Shown one piece after another: positions 1-15,641 of a DNA stretch of 20,000 nt. The stretch's first letter is position 1. Every line of letters begins with the position of its first letter. A program made the translations under genes and the position numbers. The notes beneath the pieces are model-generated. The model did no database searches, was not told the origin of the DNA, and saw only the letters and a program-made list of their open reading frames with translations. The stretch is taken from sequence record SRR16203515_705; one strand, 5' to 3'.

Positions 1-86
1 GCGACTCTCGGGTCTTCCGCATGCCTTGGTGGAGCGATGGTTTTGAATTCGATGTCCATTTTAAGCCTGGTCGGGGCAGGCGCCAT
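1..86 (-). CDS. 5' end of an unidentified gene running off the window (MAPAPTRLKMDIEFKTIAPPRHAEDPRV...)
   Basis: Manual translation: open frame from ATG at 86 (or in-frame ATG at 59) to the window edge, divergent from the TauD-like gene across an AT-rich spacer. Too short to identify. Confidence 0.45.
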   Translation of the reverse strand, partial: MAPAPTRLKMDIEFKTIAPPRHAEDPRV

Positions 87-99
87 TCCCACAGGGGGT

Positions 100-356
100 G
101 ACCATTAGAAATTCTGATTTACCCAATAAGGGATAGGTTTTATTTTGCAATGCAGAAATTCTGCTTGGGGCCAAAATCCGTAAAACTATTATTTCTCTAT
201 ATAAACCAATAATTTAACTATTTTCTGCACCGTTCATATTTTTGACGGCTGCCTATAGATCAAAGGCGCGAGCCCCACAACTTCTGTTGAATCCGTCTTT
301 TGGGAGAGTTTTATAAATTGTCCCCCTCGTTACAATCTTTCCAACCAAAATCCTAA
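100..356. promoter_or_regulatory. AT-rich divergent promoter region
   Basis: AT-rich gap between divergent ORFs. Contains AGAAATTCTG twice (107-116, 154-163) and the inverted repeat GCAGAA-A-TTCTGC (152-164). Confidence 0.45.
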
Positions 357-1268
357 ATGTTTGCCCCTTTGAACTTAACTGCATATCAATCGACGTTTAC
401 ACCGCGCAACCCCGAAGAAAATGTCTTTGCAAATGAGCGTCACTGGGATCACTGGCTTTGCAAATATCGGGAATCATTAGAGACACTCGTCGTTGATATC
501 GAAACGCCCGCTCATCTCACAACTCAGGAACGCTCGGCCATTCAGGCTCGACTCAGTAGCGCCAATATGGTGGTTTACCGATGCGGGTCGTCAGAAGCCG
601 TAAATCGCAACCAGATCGCCCAACTCGCAGAACAGTTCGGCTTGCTTAACCCCACCCACAACCTCTTTGCAGCAGAAGATGGTCTTAGCGAAATCGAAGT
701 GAAAGCCGATGGACCTTCAAGCCAATACATCCCCTACACCAATCGCGCGCTCAACTGGCATACCGATGGCTACTATCGTAGTCACAAAAATCCTGTCCGG
801 GCAATGTTGCTTCATTGTGTGAGGCCGGCCCAGAACGGCGGATCGCTTGAAGCCATAGACTCGCGAGCACTGTACGGGCTTCTCAAACAAAAAGACCATC
901 GATTCACCGAAGCGCTTCGGATGCCTGATGTCATGTGGATTCCTGAGAACCAAGCACATGGCGCCAATCGCGAAGCCTCTTTAGGCCCTGTTTTCTTTTT
1001 TGAGAATAACTGTCTTCAGATGCGCTATACCGCTCGAAAACACAATGTCGTTTGGAAAAACACCGTTTTGATCTCGGAAGCAAAAGACGCGCTCGAAGAA
1101 TATCTTGAGGACCCCAGTATCCGTTTTAGATATCAACTTCAGGCCGGTGAGGGATTGTTAAGTGCGAATGTACCGCATCGAAGAGAACCTTTTTTTGATT
1201 CAGACGATCGCGCGGGGCGTTTGATATACCGCGGTCGCTATGCGCAACCGATTTCAACTGAGGCTTAA
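357..1268 (+). CDS. TauD/TfdA-family Fe(II)/2-oxoglutarate dioxygenase-like protein
   Basis: YTNRALNWHTDGYY (HxD), MLLHCVRPAQNGGS and distal NVPHRREPF (H-x-R) motifs match the TauD/clavaminate synthase fold. Start codon uncertain. Confidence 0.85.
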   Translation: MFAPLNLTAYQSTFTPRNPEENVFANERHWDHWLCKYRESLETLVVDIETPAHLTTQERSAIQARLSSANMVVYRCGSSEAVNRNQIAQLAEQFGLLNPTHNLFAAEDGLSEIEVKADGPSSQYIPYTNRALNWHTDGYYRSHKNPVRAMLLHCVRPAQNGGSLEAIDSRALYGLLKQKDHRFTEALRMPDVMWIPENQAHGANREASLGPVFFFENNCLQMRYTARKHNVVWKNTVLISEAKDALEEYLEDPSIRFRYQLQAGEGLLSANVPHRREPFFDSDDRAGRLIYRGRYAQPISTEA

Positions 1269-1274
1269 AAGGCT

Positions 1275-1469
1275 ATGGACAGCGTACTTTGGATCAGCGA
1301 GCTGATTCTGCAAAATCAACCCGCGACTTTCGCCGAACTTACCGATCTGGTTCGCGAACGTGCACGGGCAGGGGATCGGTTTTTACGGATGGACGTTAAA
1401 CCGCCTTATCCTGATACGCCCGACAACTGGGAATTCCGGCTCGAAGGCGCCTTCACCAGCCCCGTCTAG
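1275..1469 (+). CDS. Small conserved hypothetical protein of sulfur oxidisers (64 aa)
   Basis: 6 bp after the TauD-like stop. The FLRMDVKPPYPDTPDNWE motif is recalled from small proteins in dsr-associated clusters. Confidence 0.75.
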   Translation: MDSVLWISELILQNQPATFAELTDLVRERARAGDRFLRMDVKPPYPDTPDNWEFRLEGAFTSPV

Positions 1470-1495
1470 CACGAAACCGGATACCAGAATCTCAG

Positions 1496-2200
1496 ATGAA
1501 ATATCTTAACAACGAATTTGACCTCGGCGCCGAATCTGAGGAGGACGCGTCAACCTCTGTCGAGGCGCTTGAGGCCCAGCTTGGCGCGGTAAGAGAAAGA
1601 TTAAATGAGGCCCAGGCTCAAATTGACGCCCCGCAATGGCGCCAGCTCGCGTTACAGGAAGGCCGCCTTCTCGTCATGCTCGAAAAAGGCGATGAAGCGT
1701 GGTCGAGTGCCAAAATTTGCTTTGACCAATTTTGTAATGCAAAGCTCTGGGCAGACACTGTTGAAGCCGCACGAATAATGTTCCAGTCGGGGCACTCTGA
1801 TTCACTTATTGCACTCGGTCACGGCGTCTGGCTCGCAGTAACTTTCCCAGTCGATCCAGAGCTTTCAGTAGCACTCCTCCAAGATATCATCGACGAAACA
1901 CCTGATGACTCTGATGGCGCTGCCGTTGCGGCTGCTGTTGCTGCCTATATTGTTGATCTACGCGCAGAAGGAAAAGAGCACGAATCCTTGTCTTTTTTTA
2001 CCAACCAAATGTTGGGTGCAGTCGCCCGTCGACACAGCAGTATTGAAAATCAGGAAGCTTTTGATCAATGGATCTCTAGACTCGAATTAAACGACCCCAC
2101 TCGATTCCTACCGCGCCTCCGAAATGTTGTAGACGTATTAGTACAAGACAACTGGTGGATTGATCGAGAGGCAATCCAGGCCGCGTTGCCGATACAGTAA
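1496..2200 (+). CDS. Hypothetical acidic alpha-helical (TPR-like) protein
   Basis: 234-aa ORF tightly packed in the operon, Ala/Leu/Glu-rich helical pattern. GHGVWLAVTFPVDPEL and ETPDDSDGAAVAAA segments look like conserved motifs. Confidence 0.75.
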   Translation: MKYLNNEFDLGAESEEDASTSVEALEAQLGAVRERLNEAQAQIDAPQWRQLALQEGRLLVMLEKGDEAWSSAKICFDQFCNAKLWADTVEAARIMFQSGHSDSLIALGHGVWLAVTFPVDPELSVALLQDIIDETPDDSDGAAVAAAVAAYIVDLRAEGKEHESLSFFTNQMLGAVARRHSSIENQEAFDQWISRLELNDPTRFLPRLRNVVDVLVQDNWWIDREAIQAALPIQ

Positions 2201-2208
2201 GAATCACG

Positions 2209-2907
2209 ATGTCATCTGCCTACTGGACTGAATCTGAGCTTGAAAAAGCGAAACCGGTAAAACCCGTGGTGGTTGATGTCGTCTTTAAAATTCGAGGTCG
2301 GCAGGTAGCGGCTGATCATGCTTTTGCTTTATCGAAAGCGCTCACAAATGAACTCCCATGGCTTGGCACTGAACGAGAGGTCAGTATCCATCTGATCCAC
2401 GGTGCACAATCCGCTAATGGATGGTGCAAGCCTGATGATAGCGGCATTATCGAGCTTTCAGGTCGAACTCGCCTTATCATCCGAGTGCCGCACACTCGAC
2501 TTGAAGACGCAAAAGCCTTAATCGGCGCCAGTTTGAATCTTGACGAGCACAAGATTGAAATACTCGATGCAAAACCTCGACCACTTTCAGCCAATTCGAC
2601 CGTTTTTGCCCACCATGTTCGATCACCGGATGGCACAAATAGTGAACCGGCGTTTTTAGCTTCTGCAGCGCACTGGCTAGAAGATCTCGCCATTACGCCC
2701 AAAAAAATGCTCTGCGGGGGGATGCGTCATCTAAACATGAATGAATCGGTTATCTCGACCCGGAGTCTTTTAATTGCGGAACTTAACCCTACCGAATCCA
2801 TTGCCGTTCAGACGCACGGGCTGGGACCGGACCGATTATTGGGATGCGGCGTTTTTGTCCCCTCCAAGAGTATATCGGCCGTCCACCAACCGGAATCTGA
2901 CCATTAA
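2209..2907 (+). CDS. cas6: Orphan Cas6/Cmx6-like (type I-MYXAN-like) RAMP endoribonuclease homologue
   Basis: C-terminal glycine-rich loop GLGPDRLLGCGVF fits the Cas6 GhGxxxxxGhG signature. N-terminal DVVFKIRG...ADHAFALSKAL and LSGRTRLIIRVP resemble Cmx6. Confidence 0.85.
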   Translation: MSSAYWTESELEKAKPVKPVVVDVVFKIRGRQVAADHAFALSKALTNELPWLGTEREVSIHLIHGAQSANGWCKPDDSGIIELSGRTRLIIRVPHTRLEDAKALIGASLNLDEHKIEILDAKPRPLSANSTVFAHHVRSPDGTNSEPAFLASAAHWLEDLAITPKKMLCGGMRHLNMNESVISTRSLLIAELNPTESIAVQTHGLGPDRLLGCGVFVPSKSISAVHQPESDH

Positions 2908-2938
2908 CACTATAGATACGTTGAAATAGGAATTCATC

Positions 2939-3277
2939 ATGCCAATCGAAGTTGACGGAAAATCAGTTGCCACCAACGAAAACGGGTTTCTCGAAAACCC
3001 AGATGACTGGAGTCAATCAGTCGCTGAGGCGATGGCAGCCACAGAGGATCTCGCCCTGACACAAGAGCATTGGGATGTGATTCACTATCTACGAGAAGAG
3101 TATTTTTCAAACAACGGGAACCAGCCGAACAACCGAACGTTATTAAAAAAAATGGGGTCTCTTTGGGATCGGAAAGTGAGCAATAAAGAAATGTTCGATT
3201 TATTCCCTGGTAATCCGAGCAAGCAAGCTGGCCGTCTGTCCGGCCTACCCGAAAGTATGCGAAAAGGCGGCTATTAA
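2939..3277 (+). CDS. DsrC/TusE-family protein lacking all cysteines (RspA-type paralogue)
   Basis: NENGFLENPDDW, LTQEHWDVIHYLR and LFPGNPSKQAGRLSGLP are DsrC/TusE motifs. Ends RKGGY and contains no Cys. Confidence 0.9.
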   Translation: MPIEVDGKSVATNENGFLENPDDWSQSVAEAMAATEDLALTQEHWDVIHYLREEYFSNNGNQPNNRTLLKKMGSLWDRKVSNKEMFDLFPGNPSKQAGRLSGLPESMRKGGY

Positions 3278-3337
3278 CTGCCGCGGCTCGCGGACGACAG
3301 AAAGTACGAATTCATATTTTTTTTAAAGGAGAGTTTC

Positions 3338-3541
3338 ATGAGTGGAAAGAAAGAGCTGATCGAAAAAATGATCGCGATGCAAAAAGCGTTTATTGACCAA
3401 GAACAGAACGGAGGCATCAATCCAAAAGATTACTTCGCGCCAGAAGATGGCCACGCGTTAGACGGCTATCGAGAATCATATGAAAAACTTGCGACACAGG
3501 TCGTCGACTTAGCTCATGAGGAGAAGGGCTCAAAGCGCTGA
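3338..3541 (+). CDS. Small hypothetical protein (67 aa)
   Basis: Strong RBS (AAGGAGAG) before the ATG. Last gene of the + strand operon, convergent with the next gene. Confidence 0.8.
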   Translation: MSGKKELIEKMIAMQKAFIDQEQNGGINPKDYFAPEDGHALDGYRESYEKLATQVVDLAHEEKGSKR

Positions 3542-3549
3542 GCCTTAAT

Positions 3550-4596
3550 CTAAAGGGCAAGCGCTTCTATCGAACATCCCTCAAAAACACCATTCTGCGG
3601 CTCACCACTGGCTCGATGTCGCGCCAGGAGCCCGGTGGCCTGACGGCGCCAGTGATGACTTCCTTTGCGCACGATTTTTCGCAAGGGTTGAAAATCACCT
3701 CCATCAACCCAGCGCTGATAAGCGTTAAATAGCGACGGAAACAATTGCCGGCGAATGCCCGCCATGGTCGCAAAATAAAAGTGTAAAGGAGATTTTTCTT
3801 CCTGACTCAATAACGCCGGCAGCACCATCATGCAATCAGCAAGCAGGTCTCGAACCGCCCGAATCAAAATCTCTTGTGCTCGGTCGCTGGCCGCCATCAC
3901 CATCTGATTCCAGTCGTCTCCTAGACACTCTCCGCATATTTTTTCTCCCAATTCATGCAGAATCGCGAACTCGCTAAATTGCTCAGCCATCCGATCAAGG
4001 GCGGTCTCTGGATCCTGACCAAATCCATAACCCGCGAGTGTTCGGGCCATCGCATTTTTAGGTTTTTTCCATCGCCACTCCTCTATCATCTCCCATAAAA
4101 CCCGACGAAGCGCTTCTTGCCGAATCCATATCGTGGTGCCGCGCGTCATGGCAGGAGGCGCGATCAGTTCACGAACAACCTCTTCTCCAGTATAAAAAAG
4201 TTCGTACCCGTCTCCTTGCTCAAAAGTGGTGAGGCGACCAAGCGAAAACACCGGTTTATCGAATCGACCAATCCCTGCGCTGTACCCGTAACCTTGCGGT
4301 ACAAGCCAGCTGTTGATCTGCTCGATATCAAAAGCATCGACTTCACCCGTCGGCAACGGAATCTTGCGGTACGACTGACCTTCCAAGGTGTCCCAATATT
4401 GCTCGCGCGCCGATACCCACTCTCCTACCATTCCGGCATCCAGCTTCGCATCGTAAGGTAGATTCTGTTCCCACCTAAAGTACTCTCTCATGTGCATTAA
4501 ATAAACGCATAACGAATAATCACCTGCGTGTTCCGCGTCAGAGAGATCGCAGTTGTATTTGACTGACTCAATCAACAAATTAGGAAGTGACGACAT
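3550..4596 (-). CDS. Sfum_1244-family-like hypothetical protein
   Basis: NCDLSDAEHAGDYSLCVYLMHMREYFRWE N-terminus and ILHELGE motif recalled as typical of this family. Confidence 0.7.
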   Translation of the reverse strand: MSSLPNLLIESVKYNCDLSDAEHAGDYSLCVYLMHMREYFRWEQNLPYDAKLDAGMVGEWVSAREQYWDTLEGQSYRKIPLPTGEVDAFDIEQINSWLVPQGYGYSAGIGRFDKPVFSLGRLTTFEQGDGYELFYTGEEVVRELIAPPAMTRGTTIWIRQEALRRVLWEMIEEWRWKKPKNAMARTLAGYGFGQDPETALDRMAEQFSEFAILHELGEKICGECLGDDWNQMVMAASDRAQEILIRAVRDLLADCMMVLPALLSQEEKSPLHFYFATMAGIRRQLFPSLFNAYQRWVDGGDFQPLRKIVRKGSHHWRRQATGLLARHRASGEPQNGVFEGCSIEALAL

Positions 4597-4636
4597 CTGT
4601 AAACCTTAAGATAAAATGGTGGTGGGAAGCAATACT

Positions 4637-5230
4637 ATGGCGACAAGAATCCGCGACCGGTGGCGAAATACCGGACAACCTGTTCCGCTTGAGGAAAATG
4701 CAAAAGCGCTGGCTTACGTATGCTGGCAACTCGCATTAACGTCTGCCCGTAATCTTCATGCGGAGGATTACATCTATGATGATGACCAACAACGGGTTGG
4801 AGTCATTCGAGAGTATCTGATCTTCCTCGTACACGTCGCGGACCGGCTGGCTTTTGATCTTCTCGACGAAGGCGATCGGCCCGAGTTTGTCTCTGCACTC
4901 GCCTACAATTGCGGGTCGCAACTACAACGAAACGCCAGCGAAATCTTGGGTTCCAGGGATTATCGCGATGCGTTTATAGCCGCACTTAACGATCGCAGTT
5001 CTGATTACGGTCAATGCTCGTTTCAAAGCGGTTTACCGGGCTACAGTCTTCTGCGTGTTTTTGGGGATCGCGTAAAAGCGATAATGGGGGATGACCAAAC
5101 CAATCGATGGGTAATCGATCAAGTCATGGAGATTGACGGCCCGGATCTTGCTAAAAGACTTTCGAAGTCGTTTAGCAACTTGGTCAAAGGCTCATCGGTT
5201 GACGAGCCTCGCGATGGATTTTCACCCTAA
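4637..5230 (+). CDS. Conserved hypothetical protein
   Basis: Long ORF (track start 4616). ATG at 4637 (MATRIRDRW) is preceded by GGGAAG. Contains EYLIFLVHVADR and RWVIDQVMEIDGP segments. Confidence 0.7.
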   Translation: MATRIRDRWRNTGQPVPLEENAKALAYVCWQLALTSARNLHAEDYIYDDDQQRVGVIREYLIFLVHVADRLAFDLLDEGDRPEFVSALAYNCGSQLQRNASEILGSRDYRDAFIAALNDRSSDYGQCSFQSGLPGYSLLRVFGDRVKAIMGDDQTNRWVIDQVMEIDGPDLAKRLSKSFSNLVKGSSVDEPRDGFSP

Positions 5231-5238
5231 CGTCGAAA

Positions 5239-5436
5239 TTACGATTTTTTGAAATCCGATGCGCTGTCTGTGTTGTGATTCTGCCCGTCCTCGTAACCCG
5301 CTGAATAGGCCGGGGAAACACGCTGTTCCTCGCGTTCCGGATTACCCAGATAACCCCCTACCCAGCCCTGCACGTAGTCGGGATCAACACCCATTTTTTC
5401 CAGCGTATCGACGGTTTCATAGTAGACCGAGTCCAT
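5239..5436 (-). CDS. Alvin_2107-family-like small protein (sulfur-globule-oxidation associated), 65 aa
   Basis: MDSVYYETVDTLEKMGVDPDYVQGWVGGYLGNPEREEQRVSPAYSAGYEDG. GGAG RBS upstream of ATG 5436, so the true start is likely downstream of the track start at 5526. Family name from recall. Confidence 0.7.
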   Translation of the reverse strand: MDSVYYETVDTLEKMGVDPDYVQGWVGGYLGNPEREEQRVSPAYSAGYEDGQNHNTDSASDFKKS

Positions 5437-5591
5437 ATTAGTCTCCAGTAATCTTGAAAAAAAAATTTCTTCGATATTACCCTCACCCCAGCTGAACCGG
5501 GATATCCCCCTTGGGTGAGAAAGCACTATTTGCGGTATGGTCCTAAAAGCGCCCTAATTAAGAAAAATTGATAAATATTGAATTTAGATTC

Positions 5592-6704
5592 ATGGATCTC
5601 TCGCAAGAAGACAGCCTCAGACTCAACGTTTTGGTCAAAACCTCAGTCGCCATACGGATCGATGAAAATCAACTGGTTATTTTTGGTCTCGCCGACAGCA
5701 AAGAGCGCAGAATTGATCTCAAACCCTCGGGCAATGCAGGCCAATACCTGCGTCTCATTCGCGAACACCTTTCGAACCTCGTGCTCGGAACGCCCGGTGG
5801 CTACCCGGTGTTTATTCAACGCTGGACCCGAAGTGGCGCGCTTGGCGCTGAACGACTGAGCAAATTACTTTGCCTCGGTGAAACAGAGGCTGTTGTTGCT
5901 GTTGCCGCGTCACCGAACATTACTGACACGTTAGCAGGTCGAGCATGGTGGTGCCTCCCAACTGCAGAAGTGGCGCGTCTCATGTTGCGTCGAAGTCAAG
6001 TCATCAAAGGCCAAACCGGTCCCCCGCTCGCGCAGTTTTTGCTTGAATATCTCCCGTTCGAAATTGAAAGCACGGTCATCATTCAAACCGTGCAAATTCT
6101 GCTCGTCTCGGAACTGATTGATCAATCTGAAAAAGCCCGACTCTGGGCCAGAGGGCAAAAAAATGCCGCCTACCTTATCGGTTTCCTGAGCGCAGGCCCT
6201 GAATATATGATTCAAACTGATCATCAAAAATCCGTCGGAATAGCGGACCTGGCCAAACCGTCCAAAACTTTTGCCCAGCACATTGAACGCGCCCTCTCAC
6301 AAACAGGGAAACAATATCTTGAGGGTTGCACGCGCGCGCTGCGAACCGCAACCGATATGGACTCTGTCGTCGAAACGTTGGAAGCGTTGCATCGATTTCT
6401 CATGCCAATTGCAGACACCCCACAACTCCCTCGGACACCTCATTTGCTGCGTATTGCCGCTCGCGAGCGTTTTAATTGAGCCGCCTCTATATTTGATGAT
6501 GAAGAGTTCGCCTTTATCCTTAGTCGCTATTCTGAATCCGATATCAAAGCGATAATCTTACTCAGCCTTGTCGGTGAGCCCCTCGTGGCGCCCATATTTG
6601 CCATCACTGATGCGAGCGGTAGTCTGATGCGAAAAAAACTCGCCCCCGCGCTCGATCCTGCGTTTGAAGCAATCAAAGCGCTCGGCATCGCGGAGAATGA
6701 CTAG
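5592..6704 (+). pseudogene. dsrS: DsrS interrupted by one in-frame TGA at 6477-6479 (nonsense mutation, sequencing error or readthrough)
   Basis: MDLSQEDSLRLNVL, AIRIDE, VLGTPGGYPVFIQRWTR and LAGRAWW are DsrS motifs. The same frame continues 74 codons past the TGA through LSLVGEPLVAPIFAITDASGSLMRKKLAP to TAG at 6702-6704. Confidence 0.8.
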
Positions 6705-8449
6705 ATCGGAACGTATCCTGGATTGTTCTTGATACCTTTTACTTTAGGAACATTTGCCACAACGTCTTGAATCACTTTTTGGTCGCGCAAGTACTCCGCC
6801 AGGACGTCCCAAATATCAGGCAGCTCATCCGGCTGAGGATTCACACTGGCCCATCCCGCCACCTTGTAAAGACGAGAGGGATCGATCGGCTTTCCATTAA
6901 GTTCAAGATCAGACAAACGCTGCCCCATCGGTGCGGAAGGATTAATTGCGTAGCGTAATCCACCGATCCGAACCATGTCGCCGCCCATCTGGTAATAGGG
7001 ATCCGTATTGAAAAGATTGTCTGCGATATCCTCGAGAACCAGCTTGATGTTTTCGCCCGACAGCTCGTTAAGCGTCGATTTAGCATAAGTAATACCCGTC
7101 TGGTCCATGACTCGCTCGACCGTTATGTCATCTCCCGGAAGCAAACTCGTCCCCCATCTAAAACCGGGCGAGAACGCGATATCAGCACCGCGCACCTCCA
7201 TCAGTGCATCCACAATCACCTGATCAAAAGTACCGGTAAAGTTTCCCCGCCGATACAAAGTGGTCTCGGTTTTAGCCAAAACAGTCTCGAGCTGCTGTTT
7301 AAACGGTTCGCGCACACCCTCGATATACGCTGACATTTCCGGATCAGCGGGCAGCAAATTAGCAAATACAGGCAGCAGGCGATAGCGAAAATCAGCAACC
7401 TTCCCGTCGCGGACGTCAAGATCCATCACCGAGAGAAACTTGCTATTCGACCCTGAATTTGCAACTAACGTTTTGCCGCGAGCATTCTGAACCACACTCG
7501 GCAGCGGCATCCCATCATGCGTATGCCCACCCAGAATGACATCGATTCCCGTAACGCGACTGGCGAGCTTTAAATCAACGTCCATTCCATTGTGAGACAG
7601 AAGCACAACGACTTGTGCACCTTGGGCCCGAACCTCGTCAACCATCTGTTGACATTGCTCCTCTCGAATACCAAAACTCCAATCCTCAATTAAATATCGC
7701 GGGTTGGCCAGCGTGGTATACGGGAAAGCCTGACCAATAATGCCGACGGGAATGCCGTTCATTTCCCGGAGGGTATACGGCTTAAAAACCTGTCCTGACT
7801 CCTGATCAAAAGCCGGTTTATCGTCAAACGAAGCGTCTTCCGTCAACATAATATTCTGCGCGAGAAATTCAATAGGCGAGAGCTGTGTGTCTACGATCTC
7901 CCGTACACGATCAATGCCGTACGTGAACTCCCAATGACCAGTCATGATGTCAACACCCAGTAACTTGCAGGCTTCCACCATGTCCTGACCTTGCGTCCAC
8001 AGTGCGGTGGCAGAACCTTGCCAGGTATCGCCACCATCCATCAAAAGGCTGTTTGGACGTGAGGCCCTAAGCCGCTTCACCAATGTCGCCAGATGCGCAA
8101 ATCCACCGACCTTTCCGTATTTACGTGCGGCAGCCTCGAAGTCCAGGTAGGTAAAAGCATGCGCATTCGCAGAATGGGCAGGCACTTTAAAATGATTAAG
8201 AAAATGCTCGCCGACAACATGAGGCGGCTTGCCTAGCGCGTTGCCGATACCGATGTTGAAATTTGGCTCCCGAAAATACACGGGCATTAATTGCGCATGA
8301 CAGTCGGTAAAGTGTAAAAGGGAAAGATTGCCAAATGTCGGCAAATCGTAGTCGACACTCGCATCAGCAAATACTCGGCTATTTACCGCCATTCCCGCAG
8401 CACTTGCCATGGCAAGCAACCGCATGAACTCTCGTCGATTGATACCCAT
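6701..8449 (-). CDS. soxB: SoxB thiosulfohydrolase
   Basis: Tat signal NRREF. LLHFTDCHAQL, DGGDTWQGS, MTGHWEF and ILGGHTHD are metallophosphoesterase/5'-nucleotidase motifs. RBS GAGGAAGG before ATG 8449. Confidence 0.96.
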   Translation of the reverse strand: MGINRREFMRLLAMASAAGMAVNSRVFADASVDYDLPTFGNLSLLHFTDCHAQLMPVYFREPNFNIGIGNALGKPPHVVGEHFLNHFKVPAHSANAHAFTYLDFEAAARKYGKVGGFAHLATLVKRLRASRPNSLLMDGGDTWQGSATALWTQGQDMVEACKLLGVDIMTGHWEFTYGIDRVREIVDTQLSPIEFLAQNIMLTEDASFDDKPAFDQESGQVFKPYTLREMNGIPVGIIGQAFPYTTLANPRYLIEDWSFGIREEQCQQMVDEVRAQGAQVVVLLSHNGMDVDLKLASRVTGIDVILGGHTHDGMPLPSVVQNARGKTLVANSGSNSKFLSVMDLDVRDGKVADFRYRLLPVFANLLPADPEMSAYIEGVREPFKQQLETVLAKTETTLYRRGNFTGTFDQVIVDALMEVRGADIAFSPGFRWGTSLLPGDDITVERVMDQTGITYAKSTLNELSGENIKLVLEDIADNLFNTDPYYQMGGDMVRIGGLRYAINPSAPMGQRLSDLELNGKPIDPSRLYKVAGWASVNPQPDELPDIWDVLAEYLRDQKVIQDVVANVPKVKGIKNNPGYVPI

Positions 8450-14415: not shown

Positions 14416-14895
14416 ATGACCGATAAAAGTATGACAATTATCGCGACCAAGGGCACCTTAGACTGGGCCTATCCGCCATTTATTCTATCGTCAACAGCCG
14501 CGGCGCTCGGTTACAACGTCACAATGTTTTTCACCTTCTACGGCCTTCAGTTGCTCAAAAAAGACCTGAGTCTTTCGGTCAGTCCCCTGGGTAATCCGGG
14601 TATGCCCATGCCCATGTCCATGGACAAATGGTTTCCGGTACTCGGTACCGCCATTCCCGGCATGCAGGCGATGATGACCGGAATGATGAAAAACACAATC
14701 AAGTCTAAGGGGGTGGCGAGCGTTGCCGAACTTCGTGACCTGTGCATAGAAGCCGATGTAAAAATGATCGGCTGTCAGATGACCATTGATCTTTTTGATT
14801 TAAACCCAAAAGATCTGATTGACGAAATTGATCTAGGCGGCGCCGCAACCTATTTAGACCATGCAGGCGGATCGGACATCAACTTATTTATTTAA
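14416..14895 (+). CDS. dsrE2: DsrE2-type sulfurtransferase (DsrE/DsrF/DrsH-like)
   Basis: TKGTLDWAYPPFIL, FFTFYGL and GCQMTIDLF motifs. Directly follows tusA, as in the rhd-tusA-dsrE2 arrangement. Confidence 0.88.
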   Translation: MTDKSMTIIATKGTLDWAYPPFILSSTAAALGYNVTMFFTFYGLQLLKKDLSLSVSPLGNPGMPMPMSMDKWFPVLGTAIPGMQAMMTGMMKNTIKSKGVASVAELRDLCIEADVKMIGCQMTIDLFDLNPKDLIDEIDLGGAATYLDHAGGSDINLFI

Positions 14896-14962: not shown

Positions 14963-15544
14963 TCAGGAGAAACAAATCCAGGTGGTAGCAATATATTTGT
15001 GATGACTCTGAACTTTTTGCCCCTGATGGAGATGTGTCCAAAACGGAGGAAACAACAAAAGGGTGCCCGTCTCGGGTCTGACACTCACATCCTGATGAAA
15101 AAATTCAGTTTGACCCTCCCCATCGGGCAGTGAATTCAGATACCAAATAGCGACGAGCTGTCGCTGACTCAGCGGGCCAGGACCTGCGTCTACGTGCCAT
15201 TGGTAAAACTCCCCTTTAGCCGTACGCTGCAGTTGATATCCCATGTCTTTGAATTTATTCGACGCAAAAAATGGGTGCAGCCCACTTAGCAAAGACAGGC
15301 CGAGCTTCAACGACTCGAACAATGCGCCGTCAACATCCTGCCACTCGGGTCGCCCCGAAATTCGAAGATCCGTTGACTGTTTAATCGATAGATCAAGCGC
15401 GGCATCCGGACCGATGAGGCCCCGCTGATGATGTGGGGATGCCTCAAAACGATTCACAATATCCGCACAACAATCAGAATCCAGCGCATCAGGTAAACAG
15501 TAGATAAAACTGCCGGGCTTTAATTCCCGGAACGCTCCGGTCAT
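14963..15544 (-). CDS. 2OG-Fe(II) oxygenase (prolyl-4-hydroxylase-like)
   Basis: YQWHVD (HxD), IWYLN, GQTEF, LLLFPPFWTHLHQG and KYIATTW. Start is ATG 15544 or GTG 15556. Confidence 0.88.
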   Translation of the reverse strand: MTGAFRELKPGSFIYCLPDALDSDCCADIVNRFEASPHHQRGLIGPDAALDLSIKQSTDLRISGRPEWQDVDGALFESLKLGLSLLSGLHPFFASNKFKDMGYQLQRTAKGEFYQWHVDAGPGPLSQRQLVAIWYLNSLPDGEGQTEFFHQDVSVRPETGTLLLFPPFWTHLHQGQKVQSHHKYIATTWICFS

Positions 15545-15641
15545 GATTTCGCCCACCCATAATGATCAATAAATTCGAATGGTGAACCCACCGGAAAATA
15601 GAGCAGCCGAACACTGTCCATCCTGAAGCGAAGGTTCATGC

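Follow-up and report, generated by a model that had tools for sequence, protein, structure and literature searches.

An orphan Cas6-like gene and a cysteine-less dsrC paralogue in a gammaproteobacterial gene cluster back-to-back with the reverse dsr operon

Six co-oriented genes lie divergently beside dsrA

We analysed a stretch of 20,000 nucleotides (nt) of DNA from sequence record SRR16203515_705, referred to here as the window; all positions are those of this whole stretch, and the dsrA side lies to the left of position 1. At 357–3541 the window carries six genes, two of which encode an orphan Cas6-like protein and a DsrC-like protein devoid of cysteine. A first-pass annotation, made from the sequence alone, had described six co-oriented genes with gaps of 6, 26, 8, 31 and 60 bp, and the list of open reading frames (ORFs) agrees with this exactly. 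The genes are, with protein lengths in amino acids (aa):

357–1268, plus strand: dsrQ, TauD-like, 303 aa (ORF list; PF02668)
1275–1469, plus strand: conserved DsrQ partner, 64 aa (ORF list; no family or fold match)
1496–2200, plus strand: helical protein, 234 aa (ORF list; no family match)
2209–2907, plus strand: orphan Cas6-like protein, 232 aa (PF09559, TIGR02807)
2939–3277, plus strand: Cys-less DsrC-like paralogue, 112 aa (PF04358, TIGR03342)
3338–3541, plus strand: conserved 67-aa protein (ORF list; no family match)

The closest named record for the Cas6-like protein, at 97% identity, is the chromosome of an Arenicellales bacterium, and whole-genome checks were run on the nearest genome (G001). 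In a 20-kb locus of the nearest relative (L002), the TauD-like gene is divergent from dsrA-dsrB-dsrEFH-dsrC-dsrMK, and in the coordinates of that locus dsrA starts ∼89 nt to the left of window position 1, a link that was absent from the first-pass annotation. As dsrA starts this close, window positions 1–356 are part of the dsrA–dsrQ spacer. The same back-to-back arrangement with dsrA was seen in six further loci (L038–L043). The six genes are thus a Gammaproteobacteria-type accessory cluster back-to-back with the reverse dsr operon, and we regard it as firmly established that the cluster is real and is placed at the dsrA promoter.

The gene at 357–1268 fits the published definition of dsrQ, the name given to a tauD-like gene located upstream of dsrA and transcribed away from it (Lenk et al. 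2012, cited in the retrieved part of PMC7596348); DsrQ is also listed, with function unknown, in the retrieved part of PMC6018796. The gene in the window's cluster shares family, position and orientation to dsrA with published dsrQ, whereas in the published account, as far as the retrieved parts of these two papers go, only that one gene is named and the other five cluster genes are not mentioned. Our literature search, which covered main texts, returned no description of a Cas6-like/DsrC-like pair beside dsr. Searching the literature for Allochromatium vinosum locus tags gave no link to the cluster genes, and papers naming both Cas6 and A. vinosum concern, in the parts retrieved, ordinary CRISPR (clustered regularly interspaced short palindromic repeats) loci.

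The cluster is inherited with reverse Dsr within Gammaproteobacteria

Distribution was examined in 401 evenly drawn Gammaproteobacteria, with DsrB identified by TIGR02066 and scored in 400 of them (G249 was not scorable). Matches to the Cas6-like protein were found in 125 of the 401 genomes, nearly all of them single, full-length and at 33–45% identity, and DsrB was found in 124 of 400; both proteins were present in 117. The exceptions were eight genomes with a Cas6-like but no DsrB match and seven with DsrB but no Cas6-like match. Contig ends explain two of these, one contig ending directly after the TauD-like gene (G168) and the other directly after dsrA (G294), and most of the remaining exceptions are incomplete genomes. 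The Cas6-like matches in G022 and G309 were weak (27–29% identity) and probably represent ordinary Cas6. When 301 genomes sampled across the phylum were examined, DsrB was detected in 55, of which 53 lie outside Gammaproteobacteria; the Cas6-like protein (E ≤ 1e-20) was found in none of these 53 and only in the two Gammaproteobacteria. The family itself comprises 742 clusters (50% identity) at E ≤ 0.001 and 112 at E ≤ 1e-30. Across the sampled genomes, the genes co-occur and their distribution follows reverse Dsr (rDsr), which firmly supports a cluster specific to Gammaproteobacteria and inherited with rDsr. The first-pass annotation had placed the cluster with sulfur oxidation, naming rDsr and Sox together; the tie is to rDsr, as the 117 genomes shared between 125 and 124 carriers show, and not to Sox.

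Gene order was compared in 29 loci from other genera, taking ±1.5 kb around the Cas6-like gene; some of the misses are truncated loci. The same order recurred in these loci at 33–60% protein identity, placing the arrangement far beyond chance. Counts for the individual genes, with order and orientation conserved, were:

TauD-like gene: 25 of 29 loci
64-aa gene: 26 of 29 loci
DsrC-like gene: 26 of 29 loci
234-aa gene: 13 of 29 loci
67-aa gene: 12 of 29 loci

The genes for the 234-aa and 67-aa proteins were mutually exclusive (25/29 loci having one), both being present only in the window's Arenicellales lineage. Among 47 loci spanning dsrB to the Cas6-like gene, the TauD-like gene was present in 38 and missing in nine; six of the nine kept the 64-aa gene alone and three had neither. 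Six dsrAB loci of other classes contained no Cas6-like or DsrC-like gene, and in three of them a TauD-like gene was divergent from dsrA, twice together with the 64-aa gene. Four small gammaproteobacterial genomes have the Cas6-like gene at a distance from dsrA, and a DsrC-like protein with the full tail is encoded elsewhere in each. The 1.1-Mb genome G188 has dsrQ, the 64-aa, Cas6-like, DsrC-like, 67-aa, Alvin_2107-family and 204-aa genes all directly beside dsrA. One fixed six-gene operon, as described initially, does not fit this pattern: the TauD-like gene is missing from 9 of 47 loci, the 234-aa and 67-aa genes alternate, and TauD-like and 64-aa genes occur alone outside the class. Instead, the cluster is, judged from these gene neighbourhoods, composed of two separable pairs, DsrQ/64-aa and Cas6-like/DsrC-like, with the 234-aa or 67-aa protein as a variable extra. 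The Photo_RC family was found in none of nine genomes lacking DsrQ at the locus and in none of six having it, a comparison uninformative on whether DsrQ-less loci come from anaerobic phototrophs.

The Cas6-like protein keeps the Cas6 fold without a CRISPR system

The Cas6-like protein matched PF09559 (E 1e-54; 185.7 bits against a cut-off of 26.7) and TIGR02807 (Cas6/Cmx6; 113.1 bits against 98.85), and a PDB profile search matched it to 8fcj_B (E 7.9e-26). An alignment-based model reached a predicted local distance difference test (pLDDT) value of 88.5. When this model was used for a Foldseek search, every match listed was a Cas6 structure or a CRISPR complex containing Cas6, the best being 8fcu_B, the Cas6 of a type I-B CRISPR-associated transposon (CAST) Cascade (E 2.9e-17; template-modelling (TM) scores 0.76/0.82), which is the protein also represented by 8fcj_B. 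In the model, the predicted fold is a double ferredoxin-like (RNA recognition motif, RRM) fold with a C-terminal glycine-rich loop. This loop, GLGPDRLLGCG (GLGx5GCG), is conserved and was present in 124 of 150 Cas6-like representatives. A second loop, H..H....NGW, is family-specific and missing from CAST Cas6, and its NGW was found in 128 of the 150. The gene is single-copy in each genome. Complex prediction for the Cas6-like and DsrC-like proteins gave a score of 0.01, which is no verdict for or against binding.

The orphan protein thus shares Pfam and NCBIfam families, fold and glycine-rich loop with type I-B and MYXAN (Cmx6) Cas6, and databases give such proteins, this one included, the label 'type I-MYXAN CRISPR-associated Cas6/Cmx6'. 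Unlike these, it lies beside dsrA without an array or other cas genes, has the H..H....NGW insertion and is inherited with DsrB, not with defence genes. CRISPR-like repeats did not exceed chance level in window positions 1–6600, and among five complete carrier genomes Cas1 was found in none, nor did Cas3 exceed the cut-off in any. These results uphold the earlier suggestion of a non-immune module, and we conclude with confidence that the cluster is unrelated to CRISPR immunity. One alternative would be that the gene is left over from a degenerating type I CRISPR-Cas locus, as the database label might imply. We consider this scarcely conceivable: over 120 of the sampled genomes have the gene undamaged and at full length in the same position next to dsrA, it belongs to a large conserved family (the 112 clusters at E ≤ 1e-30), and Cas1, Cas3 and a repeat array are missing where they were sought.

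The DsrC-like protein lacks the cysteines of the sulfur carrier

DsrC is a sulfur carrier and substrate of DsrAB that uses a penultimate cysteine and a second cysteine ten residues upstream on its C-terminal arm. Both functional cysteines are missing in the DsrC-like protein, which contains no cysteine at all; its tail RKGGY, invariant in 21 of 21 aligned members, replaces the cysteine-bearing tip. Nevertheless, family membership and core are kept, as in the DsrC/TusE/RspA proteins: the protein matched PF04358 (E 8.5e-32) and scored above the cut-offs of PF04358 and TIGR03342 (110 and 96 bits), and its alignment with DsrC of A. vinosum (1YX3; E 4e-29) covers 104 residues and extends to the GLP(K/E) motif. 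In contrast to A. vinosum dsrC, its gene adjoins the Cas6-like gene and lies outside dsrABEFHC, and its product is cysteine-less with an RKGGY tip. A true DsrC is encoded as well, at 3805–4137 of the nearest relative's locus (L002). In A. vinosum, a DsrC paralogue, Alvin_1508, decreases along with dsrAB on pyrite (PMC11267869). The DsrC fold has a helix-turn-helix-like element, and A. vinosum DsrC reportedly binds DNA upstream of dsrA. For cysteine-less members of the DsrC family, DiSCo uses the name 'RspA', with no function described in the retrieved part of the source (PMC8477390).

DsrQ is apparently an active oxygenase and the small proteins match no family

DsrQ matched PF02668 (E 4e-18, 66.7 bits). 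Its metal triad, H135-x-D137...H274, was invariant in 12 of 12 sequences, and R288 was likewise invariant. The nearest solved relatives are TmpA and gamma-butyrobetaine hydroxylase; a PDB search with DsrQ as a single sequence gave no match. Taurine dioxygenase proper was rejected as an identity for DsrQ, the score being 17.8 bits against a cut-off of 313. From its sequence, DsrQ is apparently an active Fe(II)/2-oxoglutarate oxygenase. A link of the cluster to oxygen, which had been proposed earlier, stands as far as this intact triad and a published remark that places dsrQ in (facultatively) aerobic chemotrophs (retrieved part of PMC7596348) carry it; nothing beyond these two points was found for it.

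The 64-aa, 234-aa and 67-aa proteins matched no family even at E values up to 10. An invariant motif, D..P...DTP..WE...E..F, runs through the 64-aa family, for which a PDB search returned no match, and the 234-aa protein yielded a weak tetratricopeptide repeat (TPR)-like lead only. ESM Atlas clusters of the 64-aa protein carry the automatic name 'putative sulfur relay protein DsrC'. Kinship with DsrC was rejected, as hhalign gave a probability of 0.3% against the DsrC-like family, and the name seems to have been carried over in error from the annotation of the adjacent gene.

Paired palindromes occupy the dsrA–dsrQ spacer

Comparison of dsrA–dsrQ spacers across genomes revealed two palindromes, which we call dsr-box sites and which are a new observation, together with a promoter-like hexamer:

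58–63, minus strand: −10-like hexamer of the inferred dsrA promoter, TAAAAT (cross-genome comparison)
85–100, no strand: dsr-box site 1, imperfect 6-4-6 palindrome (consensus ACCCTA-CCNA-TGGGGT)
120–135, no strand: dsr-box site 2, 6-4-6 palindrome (consensus TATCCC-N4-GGGATA)

The hexamer GGGATA/TATCCC of site 2 was present in 40 of 44 dsrA–dsrQ spacers, against 6.8 expected from shuffles, and the centre of site 2 always measured 4 nt and varied in sequence. Site 1 lies ∼17 nt from site 2, on the dsrA side. At a fixed distance from the palindromes, 36 of 39 spacers have TANNNT on the dsrA-sense strand, which in 17 of the 36 reads TAGACT. With this hexamer taken as the −10 element, site 1 would be centred at about −42 and site 2 at about −77, and the dsrA leader would have a median length of ∼138 nt. 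A promoter consensus scan of window positions 1–420 returned no sigma-70 site; the −10-like box emerged only by genome comparison. The spacer looks like an activator-dependent dsrA promoter layout. As in class II-like promoters of the CRP/FNR type, the spacing between half-site centres in the tandem 16-bp palindromes is 10 bp, one dsr-box overlaps the −35 position and the other lies ∼35 bp upstream, both fixed relative to the −10-like box. The dsr-box sequence, however, differs from the CRP/FNR consensus, and the dsrA start is a predicted one.

Within site 2, 197 of 228 paired cells were Watson–Crick; among the others, 11 were wobble pairs on the dsrQ-sense strand, 14 were wobble pairs on the dsrA-sense strand and six were neither. 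As the wobble pairs show no strand bias, a double-stranded operator fits better than an RNA hairpin. The exact site-2 pattern occurred 71 times in 62 of the 401 genomes, compared with a reversed control pattern in eight genomes. Judged by their coordinates, 35 of these are no more than ∼3 kb from dsrB or the Cas6-like gene; another 13 occur at other places in genomes positive for Dsr or the Cas6-like protein, and 23 fall in the 269 genomes with neither. One-mismatch palindromes, counted in five genomes, were no commoner than the reversed control pattern, and only exact or profile-scored sites are therefore meaningful. In genomes whose Cas6-like gene lies elsewhere, dsrA has the box in G152 (25 bits), G053 (19 bits) and, weakly, G319, but not in G401. 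The box was beside dsrA in none of six loci of other classes. Beside dsrA, in the genomes compared, the box was confined to lineages that have the Cas6-like/DsrC-like genes.

Exact sites also occur in two genomes in which neither DsrB nor the Cas6-like protein was matched, G162 (C7:47776–47891) and G087 (C168:5146, C199:4592); each has two, those of G162 only 100 nt apart. These may be the same operator serving another pathway, or the genomes may be mis-scored. In a different spacer (L042 of G318, ∼7650–8400), a 1.2-kb insert separates dsrA from dsrQ and contains an ORF with two tandem units of ∼90 aa, each with the motif ...NDEDL.KRAAEGDTADL.....

RNA-level analyses give no consistent structure

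Action at the RNA level had initially been proposed as one possibility for the cluster, a suggestion that the following analyses do not bear out, together with the lack of strand bias in the palindromes. No Rfam match was found in the window at E ≤ 1. Covariation in the palindromes was marginal, at 0.193 against a shuffled mean of 0.166, and was equalled by 9 of 500 shuffles. When 20 inferred dsrA leaders were folded over their initial 90 nt, z values ranged from +1.1 to −4.0, only three of them below −2, and no consistent leader structure emerged.

Contigs from RNA libraries of four marine runs (three studies) span the whole set of six genes, and single contigs cross the gene borders:

1208–1876: contig bridging TauD-like, 64-aa and 234-aa genes
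1904–2589: contig bridging 234-aa and Cas6-like genes
2842–3601: contig bridging Cas6-like, DsrC-like and 67-aa genes

A further contig, running off the left (dsrA-side) end of the window, reaches position 243, across both palindromes. Because contigs of this kind may derive partly from DNA and do not reveal where transcripts end, they are weak evidence for expression.

A possible control module for dsr expression

Free-living and symbiotic Gammaproteobacteria oxidise stored sulfur mainly through reverse Dsr; among them are abundant ocean lineages such as the Arenicellales relative represented by the window. How this pathway is switched on is poorly understood. Within the class, the present gene set accompanies DsrB nearly one-to-one and survives in 1.1-Mb, symbiont-sized genomes, and of its members only dsrQ has a name. 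We tentatively suggest that the set serves as a module dedicated to controlling dsr expression, a reading that we hold to be possible rather than probable, if the likeliest of those considered. In such a module, the Cys-less DsrC, with its DsrC core kept, would read the dsr-box sites; the Cas6-like protein would partner it, sensing a ligand or holding RNA; and DsrQ would add an oxygen-dependent input. What the analysis shows is which genes are there, their inheritance with DsrB, a Cas6 fold, an intact triad in DsrQ, and the layout and distribution of the promoter; the identity of the site-binding protein, the direction of control and any oxygen or RNA step are inferred. We favour this reading because no lineage-specific feature other than the activator-type promoter follows the Cas6-like/DsrC-like pair, because both folds are associated with nucleic acids (for DsrC, reportedly so) and because an oxygenase is a natural oxygen input. 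If it were true, a CRISPR protein would, as is rare, have been taken over by core energy metabolism. The promoter palindromes offer a concrete handle on dsr regulation, and the label 'type I-MYXAN' can make sulfur oxidisers seem to carry CRISPR components that they do not have.

Several observations weigh against a control module. The window's own site 2 reads TACCCA-ATAA-GGGATA and so has two mismatches. The contrast between box-bearing and box-free loci is confounded with phylogeny, as it sets one class against others. Of the 13 exact sites that Dsr-positive genomes have at other places than dsrA, 12 adjoin no query gene, and a regulon wider than dsr and Alvin_2107 is unproven. DsrC-family proteins are, to our knowledge, not established transcription factors. 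Finally, G188 and G348 (1.1 Mb) retain the DsrQ, 64-aa, Cas6-like, DsrC-like and 67-aa proteins, and their AT-rich dsrA–dsrQ spacers of ∼50–135 nt contain no recognisable box, even though small genomes usually lose regulators first.

Because the genes are kept in these tiny genomes without the box, a role at the protein level gains ground. The Cys-less DsrC might dock via its conserved RKGGY-tipped arm into a DsrC partner such as DsrAB, DsrEFH or DsrK, where it would be an unreactive mimic or plug, or else a chaperone or assembly factor, with the Cas6-like protein as a scaffold and DsrQ perhaps hydroxylating the tail or a cofactor. Its alignment with 1YX3 up to the GLP motif, only the invariant tip being different, and inheritance with DsrB as one copy per genome are also consistent with this idea. 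We hold it to be nearly as likely as a control module. Against it, rDsr of other classes manages without these genes (0/53), Cas6 folds have, as far as is generally known, no protein-only role, and the promoter palindromes would be left unexplained, although they could belong to an unrelated regulator. A post-transcriptional role, with a hairpin in dsr or dsrQ-side transcripts as the ligand and possibly the cleavage substrate of the Cas6-like protein, would set mRNA stability or translation and would account for the retention of Cas6 fold and glycine-rich loop (124/150). The 6-bp stem and 4-nt loop of the palindromes are the geometry typical of Cas6 substrates, one RNA-library contig spans both of them to position 243, and in A. 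vinosum dsr is reportedly controlled post-transcriptionally by DsrR/DsrS. However, the palindromes lie upstream of the −10-like box and their wobble pairs lack strand bias, covariation is marginal, Rfam gave no match, only 3 of 20 leaders fall below z = −2, and contigs cannot reveal transcript ends; we consider this role unlikely.

Plain metabolism would require neither control nor assembly: DsrQ would free sulfite from a sulfonate, and the small neighbouring genes would be unrelated passengers. The catalytic triad is intact, and release of sulfite from sulfonates has been a speculation for TauD/DsrQ (retrieved part of PMC7596348). Yet DsrQ falls far short of the taurine dioxygenase cut-off and is nearer to the TmpA/butyrobetaine hydroxylase branch, the Cas6-like and DsrC-like genes persist without DsrQ in 9 of 47 loci, and gene order and spacing are conserved across genera, all of which makes this explanation quite improbable. 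A bolder form of the control module, for which we would claim little likelihood, would have a captured type I Cas6, as the part of a novel regulator that reads nucleic acid, and a thiol-less DsrC, with RKGGY as the DsrQ target, read the paired palindromes as DNA or as RNA hairpins and so set the expression of the main sulfur-oxidation pathway in marine and other gammaproteobacterial sulfur oxidisers by oxygen and sulfur status.

Neighbouring genes and further dsr-box-like sites

To the right of the cluster, the window contains the following features:

3550–4596, minus strand: DUF6866/Sfum_1244-family protein, convergent on the cluster (family scans)
4616–5230: 204-aa protein without a family, next to the DUF6866 gene
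5239–5526, minus strand: Alvin_2107-family 'globule sulfur oxidation' protein (family match begins at residue 35)
5501–5519: weak dsr-box-like palindrome TATCCCCCTTGGGTGA, between the Alvin_2107-family and 303-aa genes (12.8 bits)
10854–6701, minus strand: soxXYZAB (family scans)
14416–14895: dsrE2 (NF047629, E 7e-85)

The presence of soxXYZAB nearby had been noted at the outset and was confirmed. For the gene at 3550–4596 the label 'dsrS' had been used; this name did not occur among the 120 best homologues of its protein, and the label stays unconfirmed. The DUF6866 gene is a frequent neighbour of the cluster in other genomes. Beside it, the 204-aa gene recurs in distant genomes (L036, L038, L041–L043), and its product seems to belong to the wider dsr neighbourhood. 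A 197-aa ORF at 14963–15556, which follows dsrE2 on the opposite strand, matched no NCBIfam family. Since the family match begins at residue 35, the true start of the Alvin_2107-family gene is probably near 5436.

The Alvin_2107-family gene and a gene for a 303-aa protein form a divergent pair in the window (5239–6479), with the weak palindrome between them, and G168 has a similar arrangement. In G163, a site in L089 between convergent clp-like and ate genes was set aside as probably due to chance. A second exact site in this genome (L088, 2305–4330) lies between an operon of Sel1-repeat, 379-aa and cysG genes and a divergent Alvin_2107-family gene; the 379-aa protein is a relative of the window's 303-aa protein, at 37% identity. 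In G241 (L124), the gene for another relative of the 303-aa protein immediately precedes dsrA, reads in the same direction and is separated from it by the box.

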